64,000 nt of DNA from a virus: the IMG/VR virus record IMGVR_UViG_3300032304_001168. One strand, written 5' to 3'. Below the pieces are notes generated by a model that did no database searches, was not told where the DNA came from, and saw nothing but the letters and a program-made list of their open reading frames with translations. This document shows positions 8,731-34,707 of this stretch, piece after piece. Made by a program: the position numbers and the translations under genes. Every line of letters begins with the position of its first letter. The first letter of the stretch is position 1.

Positions 8731-9207
8731 TTACAAATTATCACAAACCAATTTAATTAAATTAATATACTCATCCAATGATAAATTATTTTTGGAATTA
8801 TTAACAAATTTAGTGACAATAATAGTATTCTCAATTGTATATCCCAACTCACTATCCAACCTATCCAATGAAATTGAATTCCAATCATTCTCTTTATATG
8901 ATAATGGTTGTTTTGATATATAACATAAATTATTTTGTTCCTTGAGTTTGTCCTCAATAATCTTATCTGTCAGTTGAAAATCCAAGTTATTTCTTTTCGC
9001 TCTATGTTTTGCACTCTCAACCCTAAAATGGATTAAATTATTTCCTCTCCACTTTTTCTGTTTTTCAATATATTCCTCTTTGTCTATATTGTTTTTGTAA
9101 TTTAATGATAAACAAGTTTTACACTTGTTTTTTCTACTTGAATAAAATAATGATGGAGTTTTTTCCCCACATACTATACAACAATGTTCATTTATATTTC
9201 TTCCCAT
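8731..9207 (-). CDS. HNH-like homing endonuclease with N-terminal CxxC..CxxC zinc finger
   Basis: CIVC..CKTC; SLDRLDSELGYTIENT..VNNSKN; likely start MGRNINE at 9207 behind TATTTAT. Confidence 0.65.
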   Translation of the reverse strand: MGRNINEHCCIVCGEKTPSLFYSSRKNKCKTCLSLNYKNNIDKEEYIEKQKKWRGNNLIHFRVESAKHRAKRNNLDFQLTDKIIEDKLKEQNNLCYISKQPLSYKENDWNSISLDRLDSELGYTIENTIIVTKFVNNSKNNLSLDEYINLIKLVCDNL

Positions 9208-9239
9208 ATATATAAATATCACAAAAAACATTTTATTGT

Positions 9240-11430
9240 TTTTTTTCTAAAATTTGTAATTTTTCTCCAAAAAATTTTTTTTACATTTTCACTTATATAA
9301 GGGGTGACTTACTTTTTTACCCATAAATAAAAAACCCCTCTTCGTGATTGAGAGGGGATATTTAAGTACAGTTTTTCAAAAAAATTCTATAAATATTTTT
9401 TTACCCCATATACATTATTTAGGGGATTGTCCCCCCTATTTACGACAAATACGACAATTTAGGGGGAGGGGGGATACCCCAGCTGGGGGGAGTATAGGGT
9501 ATGGGGGGGTCTATGAGGGGATATGGGAGGTAGGGGTATATAGTTTAATCAAATAAAATAGATAGTCCCCCCTGTGTCAAATTAAACCCTATGACAATAT
9601 GACATACCATTCCCCTTTGTATATGTTATGTATTGTGTATATGGTTGACTGACATAATGACAAAGTAGGTATGTCGTATGTTGTGGGTAAGGTGGGGAGA
9701 TGAGTACTGACATAATGTCAATGTAGGTATTGGATGTATTACGTATATGCCGGCATGACAATATGACATACCCAACTAGTTCCATTTTGGAACTTGTTCA
9801 ATTTTTGCACAAGTTAAATAAAACAGAATAATATTTGGTTAAGTATATTAAAAATACGTAGGGGTGATTTGGTATACTGGGGGAATGACAGAATAATATT
9901 TTATTATAATATTGGGGAACTAAATGGTGTGGTGGATCGTTATAGTATTGTAATGATTATTCACCCATCTATAATACAACTGATATGATATACGCTAAAG
10001 ACAGACTTGAAGGTATGACCAAGTACAAGGTCAATAAGATTAAGGATCTGGTTATGGAGTATTGTGTTAATGTTCTTGGGTATAGAAAGACATTGGGTAT
10101 CAGTGGTATAACTTTATCTTACATTGAGTGTGAGGATTGGGGGATGTATGAACCTGACACCCACCACATCTATGTGTATATGAAGAACATTAAGACTGTT
10201 AGTGATTTAACTAGAACTATTATCCACGAGTATACCCACTCTGTACAGGATATTAGTAAGTCATATACTAAGTTATATAAGAAGTTTGGGTATGAGAACC
10301 ACCCAATGGAGATTGAAGCGTATGGTAATGAGAAGATTTACAATAGGAAGGTATTAAATTATCTTCGTAGGGAACTAAAATAGATTATTCCCCAGACATA
10401 GATTCTAATGACATATAGTCTTTCAGTTTATTAAGTGAGTCTTCTCGTATTTCGAATTGAAGATTAAAGAAATCCCCCTCGGTGAGTGGGGATTTTTTGT
10501 TTATGTCAGATATGATGTCATTCATATTGCAATAAGATAACAAGTATATTGGGTGGGGTTGTAGTCTGGATGTGTATGTTGAGTATATACAAGTACCACT
10601 TATATCATCCTGACAATATGTCACCACATATTTTTCGTTTATTTGAGTTATGGTGGTGGGGATGGTGGTTAAAAACTGGTTCATAATTTAGTATATTTGG
10701 GTCTGACACTATGTCAGTTGTTAATTTTTATGTTAAAATTGTTAAAAAATTTGGAAATGTCATTGTGTCAGGTGGTGGGGACAATCCCCAGCTATACGTT
10801 GAACAAGTAATGTTTCCCACTTCTTCCCACAATTCTCCACCAATAAATAGTGTTGATGATAGTTAAAACGTAATTTATTGTCGTTTTTGACCTCATTAGG
10901 GTCGATTATTTTAATATACCCATTTCTCAGTAAAAAAAGTTATTGATTATTGGGGAGTGGGTGGGACACATAGTGTCTTAGGAATAGGATTAATATAGTG
11001 AATAATATGAATACTTCAACCCCATCTTTGATGGTTATGATAATGTTTAAATGATTATACAAATGAGCACTATATTGTTCATATAATTGGACATTATAAA
11101 ATCCATTGATAATAACCCTTGTTATAATTTACCATAATAATATCATTGAAATGGACGATAGTCTAATATATCGTTGATATTGGTGATAAATTACCATTGT
11201 GGGAGATTTAAATACACTTACCATATATTGAGTCGAAGACAAGGTAGAAAGTGTTGTGTAGGGGAAATGTGAGGGTTATGGAATGGATTACTGATAATGA
11301 TGGGGGATTGGATTATGAACGACTCATAGTGGAACGATAGTGTAGCGGTTTCCCAGTAACGGAGTGGAGGGGAAAATGAGGTGGGGAGTGAGTAATTTAA
11401 TTCCCCATTATTGTATTTATGTATAAACTA
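9240..11430. other. Largely non-coding G-rich region at a strand switch (candidate origin/terminus)
   Basis: G-tracts at 9462-9537; seven TG(A/T)CA-N3-TG(A/T)CA motifs; divergent flanking gene blocks. Confidence 0.45.
9985..10383 (+). CDS. Small HEXXH zinc metallopeptidase-like protein
   Basis: IIHEYTH plus downstream HPMEIEA; terminator-like hairpin at ~10470-10497. Confidence 0.7.
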   Translation: MIYAKDRLEGMTKYKVNKIKDLVMEYCVNVLGYRKTLGISGITLSYIECEDWGMYEPDTHHIYVYMKNIKTVSDLTRTIIHEYTHSVQDISKSYTKLYKKFGYENHPMEIEAYGNEKIYNRKVLNYLRRELK

Positions 11431-11438
11431 ATAATTGA

Positions 11439-11882
11439 ATGAGAATAATAATAAGTGAGAGTCAGTATAGGATATTGGCTGAGAATAAATTTAAGAAAAG
11501 TTTAGAACTGTATATGGATTTATATGATGGTGATGTAAATTCGGCATCTGAGTCAAGTGGTATTGAGTTATATAAATTTATTGAAGCTGGACTTGTCACT
11601 AAGTGTTATGGTAAATTAAACTTACAGAATAAACCAATTAAGGATTTGGGTGAATTGGAGTATGTTAGTGGTTATTTTCATTTATCTAATACTGAAATTA
11701 AAACATTGGGTAAATTGGAATGGGTTGGTCGTTCATTGGGTTTAAGTAATACAACCATTAATGATTTGGGTAATTTAAAATATGTTGGGGGTGATTTATA
11801 TTTAAGGTTATGTCCCCTCGCTAAATTAAGTGATGAAGAAATTAATAAACAAGTATATGTTGGGGGTGAAATAATAAGATAA
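11439..11882 (+). CDS. Leader-bearing leucine-rich repeat (22-aa repeat) protein
   Basis: MRIIISESQYRILAE; repeats LGxLEYVGGxLxLSNT. Confidence 0.8.
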   Translation: MRIIISESQYRILAENKFKKSLELYMDLYDGDVNSASESSGIELYKFIEAGLVTKCYGKLNLQNKPIKDLGELEYVSGYFHLSNTEIKTLGKLEWVGRSLGLSNTTINDLGNLKYVGGDLYLRLCPLAKLSDEEINKQVYVGGEIIR

Positions 11883-11883
11883 T

Positions 11884-12729
11884 ATGAGAATAATAATAAG
11901 TGAGAGTCAGTTAAGACAGATAATTGAATCTGAGAAGAAGATTAGTGATAAGAAGTTAAAGATGTATAAAGACACCATTGATTTTTTTGGTCTTGATTAT
12001 GCTTCGGATTATTTTGATATAGCACGTTGGGCATTAATTGAGATGGGTGTTGTGGAATCATATGATGAGGATTTGTACTTTGGTTATACACCAATTACTA
12101 GTTTGGGTATTTTGAAAAAAGTTGAGGGTGATTTGGATTTACGTCAAACTGATATTGAAACCTTGGGTTCTTTGGAAGAAGTTGGTGGTTTTTTGAATTT
12201 ACGTGATAGCAGAGATGATTCAGTATTAACATCATTGGGAAATTTAACATCAGTTGGGGGTTATTTGAATTTAAATTATTCCAAAATTAAAAGTTTGGAT
12301 AAACTTAAAAAAGTAGGTCGTGATTTGAATTTAGAAGGTACCAAAATTAAAAGTTTGGGGAATTTGGAAGAAGTTGGTGGGGATTTAAGTTTTTTTGATT
12401 CTCAAGTTGAAGATTTGGGTAAACTTAAATATGTTGGTGGTGATTTTGATTTACATAAAAACACCAAAATTAAAAATTTGGATAATTTGAAAGAAGTTGG
12501 TGGGGATTTAAGTTTAGCTTTTAGTGTAATTAAAAGTTTGGGTGAATTAAAATATGTTTATGGTGATTTGGATTTAAGTTATTCCGAAATTGAAAGTTTG
12601 GGGGAACTTGAATATGTTGGTGGTTCATTAAGTTTACAAGATTCCCCACTTGGGGAAAGATTAATATCAGAAATGAGTGAAGATGAGATTAAAAATAAAT
12701 TTGGTGTAAAAGGTAATTTATATATATGA
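11884..12729 (+). CDS. Leader-bearing leucine-rich repeat protein
   Basis: ~8 repeats of SLGNLEEVGGDLxL; C-cap EIKNKFGVKGNLYI. Confidence 0.85.
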   Translation: MRIIISESQLRQIIESEKKISDKKLKMYKDTIDFFGLDYASDYFDIARWALIEMGVVESYDEDLYFGYTPITSLGILKKVEGDLDLRQTDIETLGSLEEVGGFLNLRDSRDDSVLTSLGNLTSVGGYLNLNYSKIKSLDKLKKVGRDLNLEGTKIKSLGNLEEVGGDLSFFDSQVEDLGKLKYVGGDFDLHKNTKIKNLDNLKEVGGDLSLAFSVIKSLGELKYVYGDLDLSYSEIESLGELEYVGGSLSLQDSPLGERLISEMSEDEIKNKFGVKGNLYI

Positions 12730-13283
12730 AAATAATAATTAGTGAAAGACAATTAAGACAGATTATTGAGTCTAAGGAGGAAAGAAATTTATTAGAAGTT
12801 GATGTGGAGTATTTGTTAAATAATACTAGTTTGGTGGTGAGGGCTTTAAAAAAGGGGGTTGATGGGATTGTGGTTGGTGGTGATTTGTATACCATTGATT
12901 TGGAAACTGATTATGTTAATGATTTATTAAATAACCTTGTTAAAGTTTATGGGTCTTTGGATATTTGTGGTAGAATAAAACCAAGTTCATTCGATAAATT
13001 GGAGGAAGTTACTGATAATCTTTATATGAATTTTAACAAAGATATTAAATCCTTGGGTAGTTTGAAAAAAGTTGGTGGGTCATTAGTATTAAGAGGATGT
13101 AAGAATTTGGAATCATTTGGTAATTTGGAAGAAGTTGGTAAGGATTTGATTATTGGTATGACTAAATTGGTTGAATTCTCCGATGAAGAAATAAGGGAAA
13201 AAATAAAAGTTGGGGGTAAGATAAAAAGAGGATTATTGGAAAACAATAAGAGTCATAAGATTTTGAAAGAATATAAAAAGTAA
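12726..13283 (+). CDS. Leader-bearing leucine-rich repeat protein
   Basis: MKIIISERQLRQIIES; SLGSLKKVGGSLVL repeats. Confidence 0.8.
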   Translation: MKIIISERQLRQIIESKEERNLLEVDVEYLLNNTSLVVRALKKGVDGIVVGGDLYTIDLETDYVNDLLNNLVKVYGSLDICGRIKPSSFDKLEEVTDNLYMNFNKDIKSLGSLKKVGGSLVLRGCKNLESFGNLEEVGKDLIIGMTKLVEFSDEEIREKIKVGGKIKRGLLENNKSHKILKEYKK

Positions 13284-13290
13284 AAATAAT

Positions 13291-13858
13291 ATGAAAATAA
13301 TAATTAGTGAAAGACAATTAAGACAGATTATTGAGTCTAGGTATTTGAGTGGGTTTACATGAAACATCAGAGTTTTTAGATATACCTACGCTTGAATTAC
13401 TTAAAAAGATTGACTACGATATTAGTGAAATAAAACCATTTGACTTGTTTCCAGTATTGTTTGAAATGGATAAGTATTATATGGGGTGTGAAATTGATGT
13501 TAATTGGGACGATGAAAATAGTTATTTTGTTACTTGGTCATCAGATTTTAAAATAGGTGAATATTTAATTGATTGCGCAACAATGGCTCTTCCTGAATTT
13601 GAGGGTAAAGATAAGGGTAAAGTATATGTTGAGAATGCTCATTGTTGGATTGAAAAAAATTCTGGTAGACCTGAAGTTTTTAATAATTTTTTTGATTATG
13701 ATGTTAGAACAATTGATTTTGATATTCCCACCGAATTTGAGAGTTGGGATGCTATGATTGAATGGTATAAGACTGAATATATGCCAAATGTTTATGAGAT
13801 AATGAAAGAACAAGCGAAAGAAACAATTAAACAATTAAAAAAGAAGAACGAAATATAA
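13291..13858 (+). pseudogene. Leader fused out of frame to 169-aa ORF 13349-13858
   Basis: 13291-13339 is identical to the first 49 nt of the 12726 gene; the leader frame stops after ..IIESRYLSGFT. Confidence 0.6.
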
Positions 13859-14256
13859 TGAAAGTAATAATTAGTGAGAGTCAGTATAAATTGATTAATG
13901 AGGTAATAAAAAAATCTTCATTTCAAAATACATTAAATGAAACACTTAAAATGTTAAAGGATGCTGCTGAAGAAGAACCTAGGGATTTTCGTACTATTTT
14001 CTCGGATAATATTGATAATGTTAAAAGTATTGATATTGTCAGTATTAATAAAGAATACATTCGTAGTGATATAAAACTAATTATTAATGTTGTCGTAACG
14101 CTTGAGTTTGATATTCCATTTGGAAAATGGGAAGCGATTGCTGAAATATTGGATGAGTTACGATATTATATGAAACCAGAAATGATAATTGATTTTAAAT
14201 TACAATTGGCCGATGGTGGTGTCATAATATTAAATAATATTGAAAGGGATATATGA
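13858..14256 (+). CDS. Hypothetical protein with MKVIISESQYKLINE leader
   Basis: 132-aa ORF. Confidence 0.8.
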   Translation: MKVIISESQYKLINEVIKKSSFQNTLNETLKMLKDAAEEEPRDFRTIFSDNIDNVKSIDIVSINKEYIRSDIKLIINVVVTLEFDIPFGKWEAIAEILDELRYYMKPEMIIDFKLQLADGGVIILNNIERDI

Positions 14257-14679
14257 AAATAATAATTAATGAGAGACAATTGAGAACTATTATTGAATCT
14301 GAGAAGAAGGTTAGTGATAAGAAATTCAAGGCATAATGAATGTGGTTTAAGTTATGATTCTTTTTATGAAACTATAAATTGGGTTTGTAGTTTTGATGAG
14401 GGTAATCAAATGATAACAACATTAACTTACGCTACCCCTTATTTCACCGAAGACGATTATGGTAGTATACCTGTTGAAACAGAAGAAATCGAGGTTGTTA
14501 AAGATGGTGAAAAAGAAGAATATGGTAGTATGAGTAGTATTTATTGGACAACTATTCATGGTCCAACTGAATTTAAGAATGCCGATAAATTAATTCATTG
14601 GTTTGAGAATGACTATAAACTTGGGGCATATAAAGTAATAAAAACACATCTTAAAGATATCAAGGAAAGATATACATAA
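14253..14679 (+). pseudogene. Leader (27 aa, stop 14334-14336) out of frame with paralog of the 13349 ORF
   Basis: MKIIINERQLRTIIESEKKVSDKKFKA* resembles the 11884 N-terminus; downstream PTEFKNADKLIHWF matches PTEFESWDAMIEWY. Confidence 0.6.
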
Positions 14680-14697
14680 AACAAATTAAAAAAAATT

Positions 14698-15372
14698 ATG
14701 AGGCTTAACAAATTTTTTGAGGAATACTTAAGAGATGAATTCCACGGTAATAAAATAGAATATGAGGGATTGTTCTTGGAATTTAATTATAATAAAAATA
14801 CTGGTGAAATGGAGTGGTCAATTGATAATCCAAATGATGTGTCTTATCTTAGGGGCGGAATTTCTGGGTTTATTGATGAATGGGTTTCATATTTTTTAAA
14901 TGCTGCTGGTTCAAGTGATTATCATAGGGAAATGAGTAGAAAACAATCATATGTTAATATGATACCAAAAGGAGCATACATAAATGCTGTTGATCGTAAA
15001 GAATTTTTAAAATTGGCACAAATTCCAAAAATATATCATTATTATGATGTTTTAGCTAAATTAAATGTTTTTGATATAGATTTTGAGGATGATGGTGCAG
15101 GTCAAGGATTGGGAATAAATATACATATGAAATTGATTAATCCAATTGATTCAAGAACTAGAAATAAACTTACATATAATGAAGTTGGGGAAAGATTAGC
15201 TGGTTTGAATACTGATGATGATTTTCTTGAATATATTGATGGATTATTTAATGATTTGGCTAGTGAGATATATGACAATCGTCCAACAATATTTGACCGA
15301 AATAATATGTATATTAATATATACCCTTATTTTTATACAAGTGAAGGAAAACAAATAAAACATTGGTATTAA
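14698..15372 (+). CDS. Hypothetical protein
   Basis: 224-aa ORF. Confidence 0.75.
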   Translation: MRLNKFFEEYLRDEFHGNKIEYEGLFLEFNYNKNTGEMEWSIDNPNDVSYLRGGISGFIDEWVSYFLNAAGSSDYHREMSRKQSYVNMIPKGAYINAVDRKEFLKLAQIPKIYHYYDVLAKLNVFDIDFEDDGAGQGLGINIHMKLINPIDSRTRNKLTYNEVGERLAGLNTDDDFLEYIDGLFNDLASEIYDNRPTIFDRNNMYINIYPYFYTSEGKQIKHWY

Positions 15373-15767
15373 AAATCATCATCAAAAAATTTAAATGATT
15401 TATCTATTTCAAGAATGGGTCTATTTTCAAATTCTTCTTCATATCTTGTATTCAAATAATCAATTAATGTTTTTTCATATTCTTCATTAGTTAATGATAA
15501 AAAATTCTTTAGTAAGGATTTAATTGGTTTGATGAAATCAAATTCTTTAATAAAGAAGTTACCCCAATGATTCTTCTCAAATACTTTGTTTCCATCATCA
15601 TCTAACCACTGATATGCAATAAGTTCTGGTTCATTTGGGTAAAGTCTTTCAATTGTTAGGTTATTGAATATTTCATCTAATTCATTTTCTAGAATTTTAA
15701 GTTTTTTACTTTCATTAAGAGTCCCCATCATTTCTTGGATTCTATTTAATTGTTCTTGTAGATTCAT
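15369..15767 (-). CDS. Hypothetical protein with MNLQEQLNRIQEMMGTLNE leader
   Basis: Likely start at 15767 (leader Met). Confidence 0.75.
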   Translation of the reverse strand: MNLQEQLNRIQEMMGTLNESKKLKILENELDEIFNNLTIERLYPNEPELIAYQWLDDDGNKVFEKNHWGNFFIKEFDFIKPIKSLLKNFLSLTNEEYEKTLIDYLNTRYEEEFENRPILEIDKSFKFFDDDF

Positions 15768-16009
15768 TTCTTTGTCTTTTTTATACAATTAGGATATCTT
15801 TTACCAAACATTGTTTTCATTCCTTTTTGGGTATAACCAGGCCAACATTTTTCGGTTAATTCTTTTTTTGAATTATCATTTCCACATTTGTGACATAGAT
15901 ATGGTTCATCACCACCTTCAGAGAATTTCCAAGACCAACCACATTTACAAGTTACCTTTTTATCAAATTCTTCTCTTAATATTCTTCTTATTGTTTGTTG
16001 TAGGCTCAT
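15764..16009 (-). CDS. Small Cys-rich leader-bearing protein
   Basis: MSLQQTIRRILREE; CKCG..CHKC zinc ribbon; CWPGYTQKGMK..PNC motif. Confidence 0.75.
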   Translation of the reverse strand: MSLQQTIRRILREEFDKKVTCKCGWSWKFSEGGDEPYLCHKCGNDNSKKELTEKCWPGYTQKGMKTMFGKRYPNCIKKTKK

Positions 16010-16062
16010 ATTACAGCATCTAAATATTTAAAAATTAATTTATAATCATCCAAAGATTTAGT

Positions 16063-16587
16063 TTACTGGATTAATTTTTCACCCATCTCACTAAAATCAT
16101 TTTCTATGATAGTTTCATCGTCATCAAGACCAAATACATTTACAATTTTATCATCAATAAATGTTTTTTCACTATCTTTCTGACCTATATAATTTGGGTT
16201 AATATAGAAATCAAACTCTTCTTCATTTTCATATCTGATAATTTGGATTAATATACTTACATCACTATTTTTATCTTTGATTTTATAACCATAAACCAAA
16301 CCATAATATAAATCCTTCCATTTTTCATAATCACCATAAGGCCATAATTCTTCAATAATATCAAATACATTTTTATTTTTATTGAAAAAATCGTTTTCAT
16401 CTAAATCAACAAATATTATATCAGCCCCCATACTTAAATTTGGTGACCATAAATAATCAAATTTTTTTACATACTCTGAATTCTTTAATATTTTAAAAAG
16501 TATGGATTTTATTATATCATAATTCTTGGATTCTAATATAATTCCCATCATTGATTGGATTCTATTTATTTGTTCTTGTAGGTTCAT
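16063..16587 (-). CDS. Hypothetical protein with MNLQEQINRIQSMMGIILE leader
   Basis: 174-aa ORF. Confidence 0.75.
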   Translation of the reverse strand: MNLQEQINRIQSMMGIILESKNYDIIKSILFKILKNSEYVKKFDYLWSPNLSMGADIIFVDLDENDFFNKNKNVFDIIEELWPYGDYEKWKDLYYGLVYGYKIKDKNSDVSILIQIIRYENEEEFDFYINPNYIGQKDSEKTFIDDKIVNVFGLDDDETIIENDFSEMGEKLIQ

Positions 16588-17156
16588 ATCCTAATTTTTT
16601 CTATATTTTTGATTACATTTTTTCCCCAAATACAACCACCTTCAACATCCCAAGGATAATACCAACAATATTTATTTCGACCATCCCAATCATATGGTGA
16701 TATTTCAATACCATCATATATTTTAGCAACTTCTTGCCAATCAATAAAGTTTTTATATTGCCATATTGCACAACGTTTAGAATTTTCAACTCCAAATTGT
16801 TTATTAAAACTATATAATTCATCTTCATTAGTAATGAATAAAATTTTACTTTCATCTAATTCAATTTTAAATACATTTTCTTTTTCCCAATGAGGCATTT
16901 CAATACGAACCCAATCAATCCAACTTGTCCCAATTCCATACCATATTCCTTTTGGTTTATTACCAACTTCTTGTACTCCAATTGGAACTGAATTTATTTC
17001 TCCATAATACTTGAATTCTAAATTTTCATCTGATGTCATAACCAATTTAGAATTGGAATATTCTTTTTCAATTTTATCGTAAATTTCATCTGAAACTTCA
17101 TTGAGGTTAAGTTTCATCATTTCTTGGATTCTATTTATTTGTTCTTGTAGTTTCAT
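16584..17156 (-). CDS. Trp-rich phage protein with MKLQEQINRIQEMM leader
   Basis: Likely start at 17156; KPKGIWYG..IDWQEVAKIYDGIEI..WDV motifs. Confidence 0.7.
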   Translation of the reverse strand: MKLQEQINRIQEMMKLNLNEVSDEIYDKIEKEYSNSKLVMTSDENLEFKYYGEINSVPIGVQEVGNKPKGIWYGIGTSWIDWVRIEMPHWEKENVFKIELDESKILFITNEDELYSFNKQFGVENSKRCAIWQYKNFIDWQEVAKIYDGIEISPYDWDGRNKYCWYYPWDVEGGCIWGKNVIKNIEKIRI

Positions 17157-17295
17157 TTTGTATATATTATCAATATAAATATTAAAAGATAAATAAAAAA
17201 GGTGATAAGATTTGCCTATCACCTTTTAATATGGATTTTTTTTGATTATATGTGTTTACTCGTGCTCTATTGACCCAGAAGTCCGTTTTTAATTT

Positions 17296-17685
17296 TTATA
17301 TGTTTTTGGATATAATCTTATTATATTCTTCATCACATAGAGTTCTATACCATCCAATATCAGTTCTGAGTTTACCAGGTTTTCCTGTTACTTCACAAAT
17401 GTTCATACTTTCAATTTCAGCTTGAGATATTCTTTTATGGGCTTCACTTGTTGCCGCATTGATGTAGAATCTCAATCCTCCGAACTTTTCTTTAACTTGA
17501 CATACTTCTTTATTCCAACCAAGTTCAATAAGGTCGGTGATAAGGTCTTTGATAAGAGGAAACCAACCTGACCCAACTTCAAAGAAATCTGAATCTGTGA
17601 TTGGATTTGATTCCAAATTAAAACCATTTTTAAAGCCCCCAATTGATTGGAGGAATTCATCCATTTGTTCTTTGTTCATAATCAA
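17296..17685 (-). CDS. Conserved phage hypothetical protein (QVKEKFGGLRFY motif)
   Basis: 129 aa; recurrent phage motif. Confidence 0.75.
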   Translation of the reverse strand: MIMNKEQMDEFLQSIGGFKNGFNLESNPITDSDFFEVGSGWFPLIKDLITDLIELGWNKEVCQVKEKFGGLRFYINAATSEAHKRISQAEIESMNICEVTGKPGKLRTDIGWYRTLCDEEYNKIISKNI

Positions 17686-17941
17686 TTATATTTTTTATAA
17701 GGTTTAACATTGTTTCATTCTCCATATAACCATCAAATTGTTCTCCGTGATTATCTATGGATAGAATATTATCGCCATTAATAGCGTCAAATACTTTGAT
17801 TGTTGGTTCTTTACTGACATAGACATTAAAATTACCCCATCTATATCTGATATAGAACATTCTTCCATCCTCAAAAGTTCCTTGCCATTGAGATGGAGAT
17901 ACCTCACAGGTTTTAATTAATTCTTTGATTTTGGGTTTCAT
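17657..17941 (-). CDS. Hypothetical protein (PSQW..YIRYRWG motif)
   Basis: 94-aa ORF. Confidence 0.7.
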   Translation of the reverse strand: MKPKIKELIKTCEVSPSQWQGTFEDGRMFYIRYRWGNFNVYVSKEPTIKVFDAINGDNILSIDNHGEQFDGYMENETMLNLIKNIIDYEQRTNG

Positions 17942-17999
17942 ATCTTTAATGTTGATTAAGATATATTATTGATTTTGTTGGGGTTAGGGTGAGTGGCGT

Positions 18000-18016
18000 A
18001 TATATACTAGTTATGT
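18000..18016 (+). mobile_element. attI-like site of orphan cassette array
   Basis: ATATACTAGTTATGT matches ATATTCTAGTTATAC next to the integrase; GTTATGTTT is complementary to AAACATAAC ending the first cassette. Confidence 0.6.
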
Positions 18017-18031
18017 TTAATTTTAAAAATT

Positions 18032-18328
18032 TTATGAATTTGTTTTATGCTTCGCAATCCACTCATCATAAGTTATTGAATTTTCATTTAGATATTTTTT
18101 AGATATATCAGCATTCCATTTTTTCATTTCTTCGTATGTCATTCCTTTCAATGCTAATGAACAATTTAAGTCAAATGAAAATTCAATACCACCAGTCCAA
18201 ATAACTTCATAAAAAACTGATGTGTCTTTGTGCCAATCATTACTGTTAATAGCATCACCATTCATTGTTATAAAAGCATCAGTTATTTGCTTCATATATG
18301 CTTCGTATTCTTTTTGATATTCTCTCAT
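18032..18328 (-). CDS. Cassette gene A, hypothetical
   Basis: 98 aa between the attI-like site and attC A. Confidence 0.75.
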   Translation of the reverse strand: MREYQKEYEAYMKQITDAFITMNGDAINSNDWHKDTSVFYEVIWTGGIEFSFDLNCSLALKGMTYEEMKKWNADISKKYLNENSITYDEWIAKHKTNS

Positions 18329-18359
18329 TTTTTATTTGTATAAAATTTTTAAAACTAAA

Positions 18360-18413
18360 ACATAACAACAAATATATTACATTAAAACGACAATATATTT
18401 GCGACCGTTAGTG
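18360..18413 (+). mobile_element. attC-like site A (54 bp)
   Basis: ACATAAC..CAAATATATT-AC-ATTAAAAC-GAC-AATATATTTG..GTTAGTG. Confidence 0.8.
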
Positions 18414-18418
18414 ATAAT

Positions 18419-18676
18419 TTATCTTCGTTTGTATAACATTTCCTTTTCTTCGTCAAAATGAAAATTGTTTTCTTTCGCAAAAGACCTAACCATTTTCTTA
18501 AACGCAACATATTCCCAAGTTGTTAGTTTTTCACTATTAAACAATTTTCTCATTTTGTGTAAAAGACCATTTTCGTTTCTTGTCGAACCATCTTGATATA
18601 AACTATCACTAACATCAGATATATTCAAGTTTTCTTCTGATTCGTTAAATCTTTTTATGTGTTTTAAATCTTTCAT
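18419..18676 (-). CDS. Cassette gene B, starts inside attC B, MKDLKHIKRFNE leader
   Basis: 85 aa; codons ISDVSDS cross the left box of attC B. Confidence 0.75.
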   Translation of the reverse strand: MKDLKHIKRFNESEENLNISDVSDSLYQDGSTRNENGLLHKMRKLFNSEKLTTWEYVAFKKMVRSFAKENNFHFDEEKEMLYKRR

Positions 18677-18743
18677 ATTATTAAATTATTTTTTTAGTAT
18701 ATATTAAAAAAGAAAACCTAAATATATCTGAATATCGTTAGGT
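18607..18743 (+). mobile_element. attC-like site B (137 bp)
   Basis: CACTAAC; TCAGATATATT (18615-25) pairs with AATATATCTGA (18721-31); GTTAGGT; TATCACTAAC complements GTTAGTGATA at the cassette start. Confidence 0.7.
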
Positions 18744-18962
18744 TTAATCATTAATTTGTTTTGAATCGCCTATCATATTTTTAATTCTATCAACTTCTGT
18801 TAAGTGTTTTTCAATTCGTTCTTTGAATCTATGTTCATATTCCTTATCAACTTCACCCAAGTCGGTTGTTTCAAGATATTTTTTAGGTAATCCTTTACCC
18901 ATAGTTTCCTTGAGTTTATTTTGAAAATACTCAAGTTCTTCGTTTGTGTTTTTATTTTCCAT
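18744..18962 (-). CDS. Cassette gene C, hypothetical
   Basis: 72 aa; own TACCTTTG -7 box at 18978-18985. Confidence 0.7.
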   Translation of the reverse strand: MENKNTNEELEYFQNKLKETMGKGLPKKYLETTDLGEVDKEYEHRFKERIEKHLTEVDRIKNMIGDSKQIND

Positions 18963-19003
18963 ATTCTATATTTTTTACAAAGGTAAAACAAATTAATGAC
19001 AAA

Positions 19004-19057
19004 ACCTAACAAATGATAAACAACATTAAAACGATTGTTTATCATCAGACGTTATAA
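19004..19057 (+). mobile_element. attC-like site C (54 bp)
   Basis: ACCTAAC..ATGATAAACAA-C-ATTAAAAC-GA-TTGTTTATCAT..GTTATAA. Confidence 0.8.
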
Positions 19058-19102
19058 AACATTTAAAGATTCATCATTTTTATAATTCCCTTTAGTATCA
19101 TA

Positions 19103-19492
19103 TCAGAACCATCCTGTTTTTTTTAATTCGTTAAGAAATGACCTAAAGTGTTTAATACCATTTTCATTCATTTCTTCTAACGCTTCCTTGATTGAATCAG
19201 GGTTATTTTCATAAACGCCTTTAATCCATTTCATATTATCCCAATAATCATCTTTCCAAGGTTTGATATTTTTATTAGTAAACTTTATATCAAAACCATC
19301 ATAGAAAGTTTCATTATCATCTTTGTATGTTCTTATGGCTTCCCAACTATAATCTTCATTTTCATAATGAGTACTTAATGATGTATGTATTTTTACATCA
19401 AGGAATTCAGGTTGTGGTTCAGTTTCTCTAACATACCAAACACCATCAATTTGTATTCTGTCTTTCATCTTATTTGTTTTTAACTTTATCAA
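19103..19492 (-). CDS. Hypothetical protein
   Basis: 129 aa (start may be MKDRIQ). Confidence 0.7.
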   Translation of the reverse strand: MIKLKTNKMKDRIQIDGVWYVRETEPQPEFLDVKIHTSLSTHYENEDYSWEAIRTYKDDNETFYDGFDIKFTNKNIKPWKDDYWDNMKWIKGVYENNPDSIKEALEEMNENGIKHFRSFLNELKKTGWF

Positions 19493-19886
19493 TCAATATA
19501 TTAATTAGAACATCTTCAGCCTCCTCATAAGTTCCATAATAATCATCATAAATTTTATCTTTGAATCCCTCCCATATACAATATGTGAATATGTTTGTTA
19601 TATCAAAACCCCCTTCAATGAGTCCAATGATATTATATTTCTCTCTGAACCATCGTAGAACTTGTTGTTTGAGTGGTGCTGTAACTTTATTGATTTTAGT
19701 TACGTCACTATTTTTAGCTGAATTTATCTCATAAGATGATAGTTGTGGTACTGTCATCAATTTATTTTCATCATCTTGGTTATAGCCAAATAAACAATGT
19801 TCATTAAATCCCAACTCTTTAAGTTGGAGTGCTTGTTCGTAAGATACAAATAAGTTTTTCATATTATTTTTGTTTAAGGATTTCAA
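19470..19886 (-). CDS. Phage hypothetical protein (YEQALQLKELGF..WFREKY family)
   Basis: Paralog of 19864-20250. Confidence 0.7.
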   Translation of the reverse strand: MKSLNKNNMKNLFVSYEQALQLKELGFNEHCLFGYNQDDENKLMTVPQLSSYEINSAKNSDVTKINKVTAPLKQQVLRWFREKYNIIGLIEGGFDITNIFTYCIWEGFKDKIYDDYYGTYEEAEDVLINILIDKVKNK

Positions 19887-20250
19887 TTAACTTGTCGATA
19901 AGAGCATTCTCACATTCCTCATACGTATCGTATTTATGTCCCTCCCACCTATCATCGTGTGTGTTGATGTAGTATCTGCACCAAGGATACATTCCTTCAA
20001 TATACCCATACAATTCATACTTCTCTCTGAACCATTTGAAACATTGTGAGAATGTTGGCAATCCAATGTTCTCAACTTTGGATCCCCAAATTTGGGTACT
20101 CCATTCTTCGTGACTATTTGTAATTGGACTTCTTTGTTCTGAAAAACAATATCTGACATCTTCATCAGGCATATTATACCAAGCCTAGCAAAGTTCATCG
20201 AATCCAAGTTGTTTGAGTTCTAGAGCTTGAGTGTGTGTGATAAATTCCAT
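19864..20250 (-). pseudogene. Paralog of the 19470 gene with in-frame TAG at 20185-20187
   Basis: MEFITHTQALELKQLGFDELC*AWYNMPDE..; frame continues into ORF 19864-20172. Confidence 0.7.
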
Positions 20251-20288
20251 TATTGTGTTTTGTTTTTTTGTTAGGACAAAGATATGAT

Positions 20289-20540
20289 TTAATCCTCAAT
20301 TTCCAAAATGTAATTTGAGTTTTTGGTTGAAAATATTAATTTATTTCCATCTTTGGTGAATGAGGTAATTTCTGTGGTTAACCAAGTATAAGTGAAATAA
20401 TGGGGATTAATCATAACTGACCTACCTTCAGCTGGTTCATCGTGTTTATTGGAAAATCTTCCATATTCATCCCATTCAATGAATATCACTTGTTCACCTA
20501 TTATGGTTTTATTGTCTTTTTCTTTGGTTAATCTGTACAT
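20289..20540 (-). CDS. Hypothetical protein
   Basis: 83 aa. Confidence 0.7.
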   Translation of the reverse strand: MYRLTKEKDNKTIIGEQVIFIEWDEYGRFSNKHDEPAEGRSVMINPHYFTYTWLTTEITSFTKDGNKLIFSTKNSNYILEIED

Positions 20541-20633
20541 ATATTTGTGTTAGGTTCGATGTTTGTAATTTGTTTTGGATTAGTTATAGAAGTCGTTATA
20601 TTCTATATAAGTTTCATAATTATCAGTTTTTTG

Positions 20634-20745
20634 TAGTCCTGACAGGATTCGAACCTGCATTTGTATATATTTGTGACCTCGACTGCCGTTGTATCCTCAA
20701 ACTAAATCACCTGCCGATGTGCGTCTACCATTCCGCCACAGGACT
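20634..20745 (-). tRNA. Atypical tRNA-like RNA (Leu-type D arm, no canonical anticodon loop)
   Basis: Acceptor AGTCCTG/CAGGACT; D arm TGGCGGAATGGTAGACGC; T arm GCAGGTTCGAATCCTGT; ~112 nt. Confidence 0.75.
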
Positions 20746-20754
20746 ATTGTATCA

Positions 20755-20786
20755 CAAAATTACAATTTGATTTTCTTATTTCCAAA
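20755..20786 (-). promoter_or_regulatory. Bacteroidota-type promoter for the tRNA-like RNA
   Basis: TTTG (20786-83), 20-nt spacer, TAATTTTG (20762-55). Confidence 0.7.
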
Positions 20787-20787
20787 T

Positions 20788-21336
20788 TTATTCAAAAATA
20801 TATTCTCCCACCCATTGAGTCTTAACTAAAACTCCGTTTTGAATATGGGTATCTTTAGTTTCAAGATTAAATCCAATAGGCATCTTTGTTTGGTGGGATT
20901 GGATAAATTCAATAAAATCCCCTCCATACCAATTATTACCTTTATCTAATTGCCCTGCTTTAAAGGCCTCTCTCATATCCTCTTCTGTATATTTAAAACG
21001 TTCTTTGGCTTTGTTGTAGCCTTGAAAAAATCCATAATAAACATCATCTTGTGCATTATCATCATAATAGTTTTTAGAATACTCTTCAGCCATCACTTCT
21101 GCCTCATCTTCAAGAGGAGGTAATAAATCAACACCATTGAGAATGGAAGCTCCATTTAAAGGTAAATGTGCTATGATTTTTTTATGTAATAACGAATGAA
21201 TGTCATTCAAAGTATTAATCTGTTCTAATCCTATTGTACCATCAACGTATTTTTCTAATACAATATCTCCTATTTTAATCTCTGAATCATCTACAACAAG
21301 TAGATAGTTGTTTGTTTGAATTATTTTGTGTTTCAT
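20788..21336 (-). CDS. Phage hypothetical protein
   Basis: 182 aa; TATTTTTG -7 box upstream. Confidence 0.75.
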   Translation of the reverse strand: MKHKIIQTNNYLLVVDDSEIKIGDIVLEKYVDGTIGLEQINTLNDIHSLLHKKIIAHLPLNGASILNGVDLLPPLEDEAEVMAEEYSKNYYDDNAQDDVYYGFFQGYNKAKERFKYTEEDMREAFKAGQLDKGNNWYGGDFIEFIQSHQTKMPIGFNLETKDTHIQNGVLVKTQWVGEYIFE

Positions 21337-21432
21337 AGTCTATTAATTTTTTACAAAAATAGACACACCAATTGACATTTCCAAGTAATAATCAAAAAAT
21401 ATTTTATTAAAACTTATGACTAACACCCAATG

Positions 21433-22284
21433 TTAAAATGCCATTACATCAAAATGGACTAGCTCTCCATTTATTTGTCCAATGTTTTCTCCGTGTAAAT
21501 CTTTTGTTGCAATATCGTTAGATTCCAACTTCAATAATAATTCTCTGTATTTTTCAATATAGTCTATCAATTCATCATAGGTAATATTTACACTCGAAAC
21601 TGGTTTTTCTCTTCTTGGAGTGTAATAATTACTCTCGTCTTCATCATCAAATTCTTCATCTTCCTCATCATCTTCATCACTACCAAAATAACCACTAATG
21701 CCAATTGGTGGAATATTATCTTCTGGTTCAGGATTTTCTAATCTGTTCACTAAGTTATCTAAATATTCTTCATCATAATCATCCCAAAAATCAGAGTCTG
21801 AATAATTTGCTCCCTCAAAAAACATTGTTGTGTAAATATGTTTTTCTGTTTTTGAAATTGGTTTTGCTTTGTCCATTAAGATACCATAAATGTTATATTC
21901 AGGATAATATTCATAACCATAATAATTTACAATACCAGGTATTTCTTTTCCTACTATTTTTTGGATACCTTCAATTTCATCCTCATCTTGAGTTAGTTTT
22001 AATATTTTTGTACCATCAGCGACAAATGCAATACCATTTAATCCCCTTCCGACATATGAAATTCTACTTATACCAAACTTATCAGATAAATCCTTTACAA
22101 TATCTTTAATATCATCACCACCAAGTCCTAATTTAATCTTATTTAGTCCTCTTTCGTTTTGAGTTAAAACATCTGTTTTCCAATCCTTTCTTAAATTTTT
22201 GATATTTCTAATATCACCAAAATTACCTAATTGTTCGGTTAAAAATTGGTTCAATATTTGTTTAATTATGGTTCTATTTGTCAT
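21433..22284 (-). CDS. Protein kinase-like fold protein with leader
   Basis: GRGLNG loop, KILKLT, DLHGENIG catalytic loop, HFD; acidic insert; leader ..NQFLTE. Confidence 0.75.
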   Translation of the reverse strand: MTNRTIIKQILNQFLTEQLGNFGDIRNIKNLRKDWKTDVLTQNERGLNKIKLGLGGDDIKDIVKDLSDKFGISRISYVGRGLNGIAFVADGTKILKLTQDEDEIEGIQKIVGKEIPGIVNYYGYEYYPEYNIYGILMDKAKPISKTEKHIYTTMFFEGANYSDSDFWDDYDEEYLDNLVNRLENPEPEDNIPPIGISGYFGSDEDDEEDEEFDDEDESNYYTPRREKPVSSVNITYDELIDYIEKYRELLLKLESNDIATKDLHGENIGQINGELVHFDVMAF

Positions 22285-30692: not shown

Positions 30693-31565
30693 TTATTTTT
30701 TACTTTCTTGTTTTATCACCTTGTGAATAAAACTATTACTAAAACTAGTTTCTTTCTTGATTAGTTCAAAATTATATCCTTTTTCAACTAAATTTTTTAC
30801 AATGTTATGTTTTTCATTTTTTAACAATCTTGTCTGAACTTTATTCCATTTTCTATCTAAAACAGGTAATTCTAAATTTAGAATTTTTTCTTTTATATTC
30901 TTTAATGTTTTTAATTTATTTATGTAAACTAATGAACAATTATCTGAAGTTAAGTTAAATTTTTTATTTTCATTCGTTAAATGATAGTAAAAAAATTCTA
31001 ATATTTCTTTCCAAGACGAATCACATTTAATTCTTAACATTCCTTTATTACATATAGAACCATCACCATCAATAAATCCAATAATTAAACTGAATATACC
31101 ATCATCAGTTAAAAATTTAGGTATTTGTATTGGTATCTTAGTTTTATTTGATTCCCAACCAAAATCATTAGATAACTTACTAATTGTTTTTTTATCGGAT
31201 AAAGTAATTCTTACTATTGAGGGAGTTTCTATTATTTTAAATCCACCCAAATATTGTTGTAATTTTATTATGTGGTCTTTATCATTTTTTGATAAATTAA
31301 TTTGTATATTTTTTTGTTTTGATATATGTCCATCAGCTAACATAAATCCTATCCAATATAACGTAATATTATTATAATAATCTAATAATTTTTTGTATTT
31401 CCAATCATTAACATTTTCATTAAATTCTCTTTTAATATTATTATAGTGAGCTAATTTTTGGATATATGGCCAAGAAAGATTTAATGTTTCCATAATTTCT
31501 TTCTTAGATTTTTTAGAATAATTTGTTTTAAGATATGTTATATTTTTTTCTTTATTACTTTCCAT
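30693..31565 (-). CDS. LAGLIDADG homing endonuclease (free-standing)
   Basis: Two motifs WIGFMLADG and IIGFIDGDG. Confidence 0.85.
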   Translation of the reverse strand: MESNKEKNITYLKTNYSKKSKKEIMETLNLSWPYIQKLAHYNNIKREFNENVNDWKYKKLLDYYNNITLYWIGFMLADGHISKQKNIQINLSKNDKDHIIKLQQYLGGFKIIETPSIVRITLSDKKTISKLSNDFGWESNKTKIPIQIPKFLTDDGIFSLIIGFIDGDGSICNKGMLRIKCDSSWKEILEFFYYHLTNENKKFNLTSDNCSLVYINKLKTLKNIKEKILNLELPVLDRKWNKVQTRLLKNEKHNIVKNLVEKGYNFELIKKETSFSNSFIHKVIKQESKK

Positions 31566-31580
31566 ATAACATAAATATCT

Positions 31581-32006
31581 TTACCTTGTAAAAAGGTGAA
31601 TATCTCTGTTAATTTCTTTTTGAATATCTCGTTCTTTAATCGTATTTCTTTTATCCCTTTCCTTCTTCCCTTGAGCCAAAACTATTTCAACTTTAACTAG
31701 TCCCCTATCATTAACATAAATTTTGGTTGGGACAATTGTTAAACCATTAATAAGTTTTGATTTCAATTTATTAAGCTCAGATTTTTTTAATAACAACTTT
31801 CTTTCCCTTTTTGGTTCCCCATTTGGTAAAGATATTGAAATATTTTTAACAAACAATTCTTGGTCTTTGAAATAACAATATGTGTCAGTTAAATTTGCAT
31901 TTCCATTACGGATGGATTTAACTTCCATTCCTGTCAATACAATACCGGCTTGATAGGTTTCAAGGAATGTATATTCAAATTTGGTTTTTCTATTTTCAAT
32001 ATTCAT
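31581..32006 (-). CDS. smpB: SsrA-binding protein SmpB
   Basis: NRK..FEY..AGIVLTGMEVKSIR..RERKLLLKK..AQGKK..DKR..IKERD; likely start MNIENRK. Confidence 0.92.
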   Translation of the reverse strand: MNIENRKTKFEYTFLETYQAGIVLTGMEVKSIRNGNANLTDTYCYFKDQELFVKNISISLPNGEPKRERKLLLKKSELNKLKSKLINGLTIVPTKIYVNDRGLVKVEIVLAQGKKERDKRNTIKERDIQKEINRDIHLFTR

Positions 32007-32232
32007 CTTCGTCATCATCATCATATTCTAATTCCCAATTTGCTTCATTGTTTTTGTTTGTGATATATTGTTCCAATTCTTTGGCGACTTCCAAGTATTT
32101 TTCTCTTAACTCGTGGAATTTTTCATCCTCTATTTCTTCGAATGAGGAGTAGTGTTTGAAACAATAATGAAACCCTTCTGCGTCCATTCTATAATGAACA
32201 TTATTCCAGTTTTCCGCTTCTTCTGCTTTCAT
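31996..32232 (-). CDS. Hypothetical protein
   Basis: 78 aa; acidic tail. Confidence 0.7.
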   Translation of the reverse strand: MKAEEAENWNNVHYRMDAEGFHYCFKHYSSFEEIEDEKFHELREKYLEVAKELEQYITNKNNEANWELEYDDDDEDEY

Positions 32233-32286: not shown

Positions 32287-33087
32287 TTAAATAGGTAAAT
32301 TTATTTTACTTAATAACTGATTTGAAACGTGTGTATAAATTTCAGTTGTTTTAACATTATTATGACCTGCAATCTTTTGAATTATTCTCAAATCCGTTCC
32401 ATTTTCTAATAAATTGGTGAAACAAGAATGTCTGAGTTGATGAATATGATATTCTTTACCTAAGTATTGCTTTACAATTTTATTACAACTCCCAAAACTA
32501 TATTTTAGATTATTTTGACCATTGAATAGATGGGTGATTGGTTTATATTCTTTATAATATTCTCTTAGAAGTTGTAGGATATTTTGTGATAGTGGAACAA
32601 TCCTATCTTTTCTACCTTTGGCATTTTTGATATGGATAATCATTCTTTTGGAATCAATATCTTCAATTTTGAGATTGACTACTTCTGACACTCTTAGACC
32701 TACTGAAAATGTTAGTGATAGTAGTGTCTTATGTTTTAGGTTTTTGATTTTGGAGAGTTGTTCTTTAATAAAATCACCATCAATAACTTTTGGAAGTTTC
32801 TTTTCTGATTTAGGTCTTTTGAAACTTACTTTATCATATTTTTTATCCAATCCAAATTTATAGAGAAATCTGATTGCGTTAATGATTTGGTTTTGTTGAG
32901 AAACTGAGGTGAAGTTATAGTTATCTAAATAAGATTGAAAATCTTGAGAGGTTAATCTAGTTGGTGATGTTTTATTATTTTCTAAAAACTGATTGATGTA
33001 AAAAAGATAGGACTTGATTGTCCTATCTGAGTAATTTAAGTATTTCAATTTTTGATTACAAATTTCGTAGTAATTTGTCTTTTTCAT
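32287..33087 (-). CDS. Tyrosine recombinase (integron-integrase-like, lacks IntI insertion)
   Basis: YSDRTIKSY SAM-like N-terminus; GLRVSE, KGRKDR, HQLRH, GTDLRIIQKIAGH, TTEIY catalytic set intact. Confidence 0.92.
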   Translation of the reverse strand: MKKTNYYEICNQKLKYLNYSDRTIKSYLFYINQFLENNKTSPTRLTSQDFQSYLDNYNFTSVSQQNQIINAIRFLYKFGLDKKYDKVSFKRPKSEKKLPKVIDGDFIKEQLSKIKNLKHKTLLSLTFSVGLRVSEVVNLKIEDIDSKRMIIHIKNAKGRKDRIVPLSQNILQLLREYYKEYKPITHLFNGQNNLKYSFGSCNKIVKQYLGKEYHIHQLRHSCFTNLLENGTDLRIIQKIAGHNNVKTTEIYTHVSNQLLSKINLPI

Positions 33088-33128: not shown

Positions 33129-33145
33129 ATATATTCTAGTTATAC
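33129..33145 (+). mobile_element. attI-like site
   Basis: ATATATTCTAGTTATAC about 50 bp 5' of the integrase start; GTTATACT complements AGTATAAC ending cassette 1. Confidence 0.65.
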
Positions 33146-33389: not shown

Positions 33390-33443
33390 GTATAACAAAG
33401 AATATGTGTCATTAAAACGAACACATATTCTCAACCGTTATGT
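33390..33443 (+). mobile_element. attC-like site 1 (54 bp)
   Basis: GTATAAC..AGAATATGTGT-C-ATTAAAAC-GA-ACACATATTCT..GTTATGT. Confidence 0.82.
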
Positions 33444-34613: not shown

Positions 34614-34707
34614 ACATAACAAGGTGTATAAGAAAGTTTGCTATAAAGTTTAGTGGTAATTTGAAAGTTCATCTAAGCAAACCTTCTCATACACCCAAAC
34701 GTTATAC
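34614..34707 (+). mobile_element. attC-like site 2 (94 bp)
   Basis: ACATAAC; 18/20-bp stem GGTGTATAAGAAAGTTTGCT / AGCAAACCTTCTCATACACC; GTTATAC; CACCTACACATAAC complements GTTATGTGTAAGTG (13/14). Confidence 0.82.

Follow-up and report, generated by a model that had tools for sequence, protein, structure and literature searches.

Layout of the candidate second array

Can small genes be gathered and exchanged in an integron-like manner at a place in a phage genome that has no recombinase gene beside it? The question is posed by positions 17942-19096 of IMG/VR virus record IMGVR_UViG_3300032304_001168, within a stretch of 64,000 nucleotides that was analysed as a whole and is called the window here. 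Three small open reading frames (ORFs) set between hairpins follow an attI-type site at this locus, and, reading from the sequence, we consider it likely that large Bacteroidota phages have an integron-like gene-cassette system, of which this segment is a second array, without an adjoining recombinase gene. The preliminary description of this DNA had proposed an attI-like landing site, three single-ORF cassettes and no integrase gene next to them. All of these elements were recovered in place; no recombinase domain was found in the ORFs neighbouring the array, and the sole recombinase homologue of the window (a single tblastn match) lies 13.2 kb away. The elements of the array are the following.

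17942-18014, plus strand: attI-type landing site of the second array, with the 15-nt core ATATATACTAGTTAT at 18000-18014
18010-18410, plus strand: cassette 1, with left end 18010-18033, right end 18343-18366 and site A core 18363-18410
18032-18328, minus strand: cassette 1 ORF, 98 aa, from the ORF list
18407-18740, plus strand: cassette 2, with ends 18407-18422 and 18598-18613 and the long hairpin site B at 18610-18740
18419-18676, minus strand: cassette 2 ORF, 85 aa, its start codon within the loop of site B
18737-19054, plus strand: cassette 3, with ends 18737-18762 and 18985-19010 and site C core 19007-19054
18744-18962, minus strand: cassette 3 ORF, 72 aa, with TACCTTTG (a Bacteroidota -7-like motif) at 18978-18985 on the sense strand
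19051-19096, plus strand: right junction GTTATAAAACATTT..., including a gene remnant at 19067-19095

Exact copies of the 15-nt core ATATAWWCTAGTTAT occur in the window only at the second landing site (18000-18014) and at 33129-33143, near the recombinase gene; the same attI core also adjoins recombinase genes in L002, L013, L050, L086, L101 and L103. Crossover in the second landing site would fall within GTTA, after the G (G/TTA, 18010/18011). The inverted ends of every cassette in the array begin with GTTA and finish with TAAC. No match for the ORFs of cassettes 1-3 was obtained in Pfam, PHROGs, PADLOC or the protein Atlas. At the right junction, the remnant at 19067-19095 preserves the 8 initial codons of a gene found intact in L124 and L125. 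The loop of site B holds the start codon and about the first 20 codons of the cassette 2 ORF.

Complementarity of the cassette ends

The two ends of each cassette are complementary to one another, as had been noticed in the preliminary description, and over a greater length than was seen there: 18010-18033 pairs with 18343-18366 in cassette 1 (24 nt, 83%), 18407-18422 with 18598-18613 in cassette 2 (16 nt, 94%) and 18737-18762 with 18985-19010 in cassette 3 (26 nt, 92%). The leftmost 64 nt of cassette 1 recur in L009 behind an attC-type hairpin. For a wider set of sites, the 16 nt ending in TAAC were compared with the DNA 90-1050 nt upstream; a reverse complement with at most three mismatches was present at 80 of 129 sites as compared with 6 of 126 shuffled controls. 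In every case the partner GTTA came after an attI-type ATATA..TA or after the 3' arm and spacer of a further hairpin.

Across 66 distinct cassettes, positions 1-8 counted from the crossover were at least 95% Watson-Crick paired and pairing extended to about position 16, with position 11 a fixed C.A in 49 of the 66. Mismatches in the ends favoured C.A or A.C on the plus strand, which is G.T on the minus strand (72 versus 4), mostly at one conserved position. Six consecutive sites in the second array of a complete 310-kb relative follow the same rule, the far end complementing the near end. In 76 of 78 cassettes the ORF and the site have opposite polarity, so that the hairpin is upstream of its own ORF.

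The hairpin site families

Sites A and C, together with a hairpin at 33393-33440, have a common 48-nt architecture of TAAC, AA, an 11-nt stem arm, the loop CATTAAAACGA, the second 11-nt arm, 5 nt and GTTA. The loop is exact at 18380, 19024 and 33410, each time on a different stem of 10-11 bp, which bears out the shared loop of the preliminary description. A covariance model built from 50 distinct family members found exactly three sites in the 64 kb, all on the plus strand at 70-80 bits (70.4 for site A and 75.6 for site C); the next match, at 18 bits, was the long site at 34618. Rfam held no family at the hairpins. The family was collected with a fixed-spacing pattern on viral contigs, at least 120 of which matched, many of them 100-460 kb in length.

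Among 48 distinct sites there were about 15 unrelated stems, nearly all perfectly paired, and the 11-nt loop was conserved. In the alignment of 50 members, the inner 11-bp helix was 94.9% paired with compensatory changes in 9 of its 11 pairs, so the earlier proposal that the stems differ yet remain paired by covariation can be kept. The two pairs that never varied form a TA step, although the search pattern had left this step free. Outside the TAAC and GTTA of a single site, flanks paired at background level only, which is expected if the two flanks belong to different cassettes.

The proposal that the array uses one 54-bp family, with an unpaired A in the loop, needs correction in three respects. 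Sites A and C do belong to the family of the recombinase-proximal array, but the middle site at 18610-18740 belongs to another family of ~130 nt; its 22-nt arms lie at 18615-18636 and 18710-18731, and at least 30 copies with 70-86% identity are present in other phage loci. Sites A and C are indeed equal in size, but the core from TAAC to GTTA measures 48 nt, and 54 is reached with 3 further nt at either end. As for the unpaired A, it amounts to no more than an A.C at the pair that closes the loop in site A and is no feature of the family.

Could such structures be chance palindromes in AT-rich intergenic DNA? A naive scan for GTTA/TAAC 12-mer inverted pairs returned 66 as compared with 55-98 in shuffles, and the 11-mer loop with one mismatch allowed was likewise not above chance in the window; only end tests anchored on a hairpin were informative. 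Chance is nevertheless a negligible explanation, in view of the three exact 48-nt architectures with fixed spacing, the stem covariation over 50 members, the excess of paired ends over controls and the breakpoints of relatives on the cores, and it is contradicted by the family on at least 120 contigs and by model matches of 70-80 bits. By its 50 distinct members and by the end-pairing test against shuffled controls, the hairpin family is beyond chance.

The 48-nt site was also seen on 19 contigs of GTDB genomes (L129-L147), mostly Bacteroidota, including a Fluviicola chromosome (CP121319.1), Gillisia sp. Q332, Flavobacteriales, Chitinophaga and Saprospiraceae. A few short site-bearing contigs are binned to unrelated taxa and are probably phage DNA. 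Within the stretches fetched, the bacterial contigs carried single sites and no arrays.

Alleles of the locus in relatives

Relatives of the second-array locus were retrieved through a neighbouring 94-aa ORF. The empty and alternative alleles that the preliminary description had called for were found, with breakpoints at the GTTA cores; the empty allele, however, joins 17944 directly to 19095, and not 18010 to downstream sequence as had been anticipated. This allele (L122) is without the landing site as well as all cassettes, and the block that it lacks is bounded by TCATATC, a 7-bp direct repeat at both edges in the window.

Further alleles differ in content. L123 is 96-99% identical to the window through ...TATATATACTAGTTATG, after which another cassette follows, complete with its own complementary end and a long hairpin; the two sequences diverge exactly after ...CTAGTTATG, and their flanks are 99% identical. 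L126 has another cassette and long hairpin, and its homology with the window resumes exactly at the GTTA of 19050. Different last cassettes precede the common GTTATAAA... flank in L126 and L082, the latter sharing its right flank with the window from GTTATAAAACATTTAA onward and differing in cassette end and stem. In L124/L125 an ordinary gene of ~75 aa stands in place of the array. On the basis of the alleles L122, L123, L126, L082 and L124/L125, the second array is best read as an insertion that displaced a resident gene and whose content has turned over at GTTA cores.

A single cassette is shared with LR756500.1, a 462-kb uncultured phage that has only 18738-19062 in common with window positions 15000-22000, at 86% identity. 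The identity begins with TTAGGTT (the preceding G is replaced by A) and ends after GTTATAAAACA, and its only gap is a 30-nt in-frame one within the ORF. Cassette 3 alone is shared, with the breaks at its very borders, and this comparison settles which hairpin travels with which ORF. Near-identical phages also hold different first cassettes directly after the same recombinase-adjacent attI (L050/L002, L031/L097 and L046/L060), and cassette borders at GTTA were recovered by comparison in LR756500.1, L123, L126, L082, L050/L002 and L031/L097.

Some borders are irregular. ATTA replaces GTTA at the crossover base in LR756500.1 (L001 3005) and in L123rc at ~3590, with borders otherwise intact; these may be inactivated sites. 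The left break of L126 falls inside ORF 17657-17941 at ATATCTG, which is common with a hairpin arm; the border at L126rc 3185-3200 removes the first 31 codons of the homologue of this ORF and looks like an off-target or microhomology event. The start of ORF 17657-17941 was also considered as the stump of a deleted integrase (KIKELIKTCE compared with KIIKICEEK), and this was ruled out, the empty allele L122 starting alike.

The recombinase and its proximal array

The only candidate enzyme in the window is encoded at the following positions, next to an attI core and a hairpin of the 48-nt family.

32287-33087, minus strand: Xer-like tyrosine recombinase, 266 aa, Pfam Phage_int_SAM_4 and Phage_integrase
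33129-33143, plus strand: attI core close to the recombinase gene, at 42 nt upstream from its start codon
33393-33440, plus strand: 48-nt hairpin of the recombinase-proximal array, covariance-model score 80.5 bits

Predicted catalytic residues R, K, H-x-x-R, H and Y were read from GLRVSE, KGRKDR, HQLRH, GH and IYTH. The protein scores below every NCBIfam cut-off, the best being XerA (179 versus 220), with XerD at 148 versus 330; the integron integrase model TIGR02249 reaches 154 bits in two stretches against a cut-off of 265. Among proteins with a solved structure, archaeal XerA proteins match it best. Alignment with VchIntIA (2a3v) gave two blocks in which 33 query residues stand opposite 81, indicating that the IntI-specific insertion is absent, and between residues 177 and 211 the phage protein is ~48 residues shorter than IntI4.

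Linkage of hairpins to this enzyme was examined in 48 recombinase loci sampled by the recombinase protein alone. Oriented hairpin sites were present within 3 kb upstream of the recombinase gene in 43 of the loci; 140 sites lay upstream and 3 downstream, and 7 were in the opposite orientation. A conserved ATATAWW.TA/GTTA is found ~40-55 nt upstream of the recombinase start, and an attI-like motif lies within 120 nt in 36 of the 48 loci. The linkage of the arrays to this recombinase family is thus tight and polar, and strongly so.

The second cassette of the proximal array (33511-34503, minus strand) codes for a protein of 330 aa that weakly matches GNAT acetyltransferases (E 8.5e-5). A long hairpin at 34618-34703 closes this cassette; on its minus strand the hairpin folds at -15.5 kcal/mol with the help of G.T pairs.

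Strand preference and proposed mechanism

All five sites of the window fold more stably on the minus strand, for example at -9.9 versus -8.3 and -15.5 versus -11.7 kcal/mol; for site B the values are -16.4 (minus) and -13.0 (plus) kcal/mol. The minus-strand fold places the TAAC/GTTA helix in a stack with the inner stem and leaves a 3-nt bulge. Minus-strand folding, together with the bias toward G.T mismatches, suggests that the functional form is a folded single strand, as it is in integrons. Behind the hairpins, the Bacteroidota -7-like motif TAnnTTTG occurred on the sense strand at 30 of 122 and on the antisense strand at 5, with a shuffle mean of 6.8. Simple scans at the hairpins gave no intrinsic-terminator pattern, and sigma-70-like sites were not above shuffles.

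A mechanism can be proposed from these features. A cassette consists of one ORF and a hairpin site upstream of it on the sense strand. In the free circular cassette, the two ends would pair as an R box of ~16 bp with one fixed non-Watson-Crick position, and the hairpin would supply the second box, which in the 48-nt family has an 11-bp stem, an invariant TA step and a conserved 11-nt loop. The two boxes would be set apart by an asymmetric spacer of 2 versus 5 nt. A Xer-type tyrosine recombinase would cut at G/TTA (TAA/C on the sense strand) of a substrate that would be the folded single sense (minus) strand, and would join cassettes either with other hairpin sites or with a landing site of the attI type, so that a row is built, trimmed and reshuffled. 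The second array would be served in trans, either by the recombinase at 32287-33087 or by the enzyme of a co-infecting relative.

More broadly, we slightly favour the view that jumbo Bacteroidota phages have an integron analogue with a plain Xer-type recombinase, in which several landing pads of different attI types are served by one enzyme or by the enzymes of co-infecting relatives, the folded sense strand is the substrate, and cassettes bring their own means of expression with hairpin, promoter and sometimes start codon.

Possible action in trans, relic arrays and RNA-level roles

In a complete 310-kb genome (G006), a single recombinase with a proximal array is accompanied by a second array at a distance of 15 kb. 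This second array was considered as the same locus and rejected, as it has no blastn homology to the flanks in the window; it is a parallel case instead. Other complete genomes have arrays and no recombinase (G007 and G009) or a truncated recombinase only (G008). The patterns of G006-G009 fit action in trans and also fit relic arrays.

Classical integrases are attI-specific, and the additional domain of IntI is thought necessary for recombination of folded attC. Five observations weigh against the mechanism proposed above. The last 40 nt of the second landing site resemble the attI of L166/L168 (z 6.3-6.6) and not the resident attI (z 0.5), in an alignment of ~50 nt left of the crossover; L166/L168 are a sister lineage whose recombinase is 72% identical. 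Given the attI specificity of classical integrases, the resident enzyme may not use the second landing site. The empty allele L122 lacks the landing site too and has TCATATC edges, which suggests that the whole block came or went by another route. Arrays persist in the complete genomes G007 and G009 without a recombinase, so arrays can remain as relics. The phage recombinase is without the insertion that classical integrases use on folded attC. Finally, the strand that folds better is at the same time the sense strand of the mRNA, which leaves a role at the RNA level inseparable from one at the DNA level.

Several of these observations would agree with an orphan array, namely one that arose with its landing site as a proximal array of the sister lineage, moved in as a block and is not acted on by the resident enzyme, the allele differences being due to homologous recombination between co-infecting phages through conserved flanks and hairpins. 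The L166/L168-type landing site, the TCATATC microhomology of the empty allele, the ATATCTG microhomology of the L126 break, the recombinase-less or truncated states of G007, G009 and G008 and the G-to-A change at the crossover base in LR756500.1 and L123 are all in line with such an origin. We regard it as unlikely all the same, since the window and L123 split exactly after CTAGTTATG between 99% identical flanks, homology in L126 and L082 restarts exactly at GTTA, the three hairpins of the 48-nt family in the window are intact at 70-80 bits, and the 15-nt attI core is of the same type as the core beside the resident recombinase.

The hairpins might instead be regulatory or RNA-level elements, such as terminators, processing sites or promoter modules, with genes shuffled by homologous recombination between repeats and no dedicated recombinase, as has been proposed for the promoter-stem-loop (PeSL) cassettes considered below. 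The mRNA sense of the better-folding strand (on which the mismatches become G.U), the position of the hairpin upstream of the ORF, the -7-like motif enriched behind it and the start codon within site B would suit this explanation. It is, however, very improbable: exchange mediated by repeats leaves unexplained the complementarity of far and near cassette ends, the fixed G/TTA breakpoint and the polar, 50-fold excess of sites upstream of a single recombinase family whose attI is conserved, and the scans for terminators and sigma-70-like sites described above were negative.

Taken together, the cassette-array reading is very likely. That the second array is served by the resident recombinase at 32287-33087 appears, from the sequence comparisons, only a little better than an even chance.

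Comparison with known systems

The phage system resembles integrons and clusters of attC sites lacking integrases (CALINs) in several ways. In both, a tyrosine recombinase gene has an adjacent attI (its conserved motif is present at 36 of 48 phage loci), which in the phages takes the first cassette; rows of mostly single-ORF cassettes are separated by imperfect palindromes with AAC...GTT cores; crossover is at G/TT, so that the start of a cassette complements the far box of its own site; and several site families stand side by side, with extra arrays that have no recombinase. The cassettes appear to move as units at G/TT, as those of integrons do. By analogy, the second array would be a CALIN, with three non-canonical sites at 18363-19054 and no recombinase nearby.

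The layout is thus that of an integron with a CALIN, but three defining features fail, namely the IntI domain, the 7-nt consensus and the ORF direction. The phage recombinase is Xer-like, 266 aa long and without the IntI insertion. The consensus RYYYAAC / GTTRRRY is present in only 6 of 50 and 2 of 50 phage sites, respectively, although a two-box hairpin with invariant TAAC/GTTA is there. Phage ORFs are antisense to site polarity, with the hairpin at the 5' side, and run toward attI and the recombinase gene. Further differences lie in the site itself: the phage R box measures ~16 bp and contains one fixed mismatch, the inner stem is perfect and has no extrahelical L-box bases, the loop is conserved, and asymmetry resides in the 2/5-nt spacer. 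The promoterless ORF with a 3' attC, as in integrons, was not encountered; the promoter-like TAnnTTTG is instead enriched behind the phage hairpin.

Similarity to Xer systems is greatest in the enzyme, which most resembles XerA, XerC and XerD and yet falls below all Xer equivalog cut-offs. Two leads concern the sites: we take the TTA-N5-AAT of the cassette ends to recall the 11-bp Xer binding arm, and TAA-6 nt-RTA on the 5' side presumably recalls the spacing of E. coli dif, in which the two arms flank a central 6 bp. Inverted sites bound the phage modules, as they do the pdif modules of Acinetobacter plasmids. Unlike dif, which is a 28-bp duplex site, the phage sites are split hairpins with a 2/5-nt spacer, and the phage arrays have a polarity, beginning at an attI beside the enzyme.

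The PeSL cassettes of T4-type phages, reportedly described by Arbiol et al. in 2010, are said to be small genes flanked by stem-loops with promoter elements that are shuffled between related phages. Repeats recombining with one another reportedly account for this shuffling, in which neither a dedicated recombinase nor an attI takes part. In contrast, the phage array has a fixed breakpoint, self-complementary ends and a linked recombinase.

No description of this phage cassette system was found in the literature. The nearest paper reports clusters of canonical attC in 21 phages, identified with IntegronFinder, together with an IntI1 assay, and the 48-nt site family is not described there (Qi et al. 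2023, PMC9892861).

Phage setting and neighbouring features

The window has a G+C content of 24-35% and nearly all of its genes on the minus strand. Relatives in IMG/VR are estimated by CheckV to be 20-43% complete at 59-129 kb, implying genomes of ~300 kb, and complete relatives span 281-362 kb; the window looks like part of a jumbo phage. The nearest cultured kin of the recombinase are integrases of Cellulophaga and Polaribacter phages (34-40% identity) and the 48-nt hairpin family is also present on contigs of Bacteroidota genomes, on which grounds the host is probably a member of the Bacteroidota.

Several other features of the window were recorded. GC skew is strongly positive (to +0.58) at 9000-15000 and negative in the remainder, marking a strand-switch region. 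Near-identical stretches of ~50-60 nt at 15706-15770, 16538-16606 and 17091-17232 encode N-terminal leaders (M.LQEQINRIQ.MM) of unrelated adjacent ORFs; these leader stretches are repeated many times in relatives, and several of the leaders end in L/I-x-E. At 20634-20745 (minus strand, 112 nt) there is an Rfam tRNA match of 40.3 bits over the full model, while ARAGORN reported no tRNA in the window; this candidate may be a tRNA-like RNA, or else a tRNA that contains an insertion or intron. An SmpB homologue (31581-32024, minus strand; Pfam SmpB, E 7e-47) is encoded two genes downstream of the recombinase, with a 78-aa ORF between, and adjoins a LAGLIDADG_3 ORF at 30693-31565 (minus strand) that is likely a homing endonuclease.

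Implications for phage gene exchange

Integrons, the textbook case of gene storage and exchange, have a chemistry tied to one special integrase. In the large phages considered here, the same logic of attI, hairpin-bounded cassettes and integrase-less arrays appears together with a simpler Xer-like enzyme, and a locus at which close relatives have no cassettes, other cassettes or other ends amounts to a natural experiment. If the proposed mechanism is true, tools that seek IntI and canonical attC would miss a widespread system, one site family of which is on at least 120 viral contigs. Cassette platforms would then have evolved or diversified beyond IntI, and phages would own a dedicated route for trading small accessory genes at several places in their genomes.

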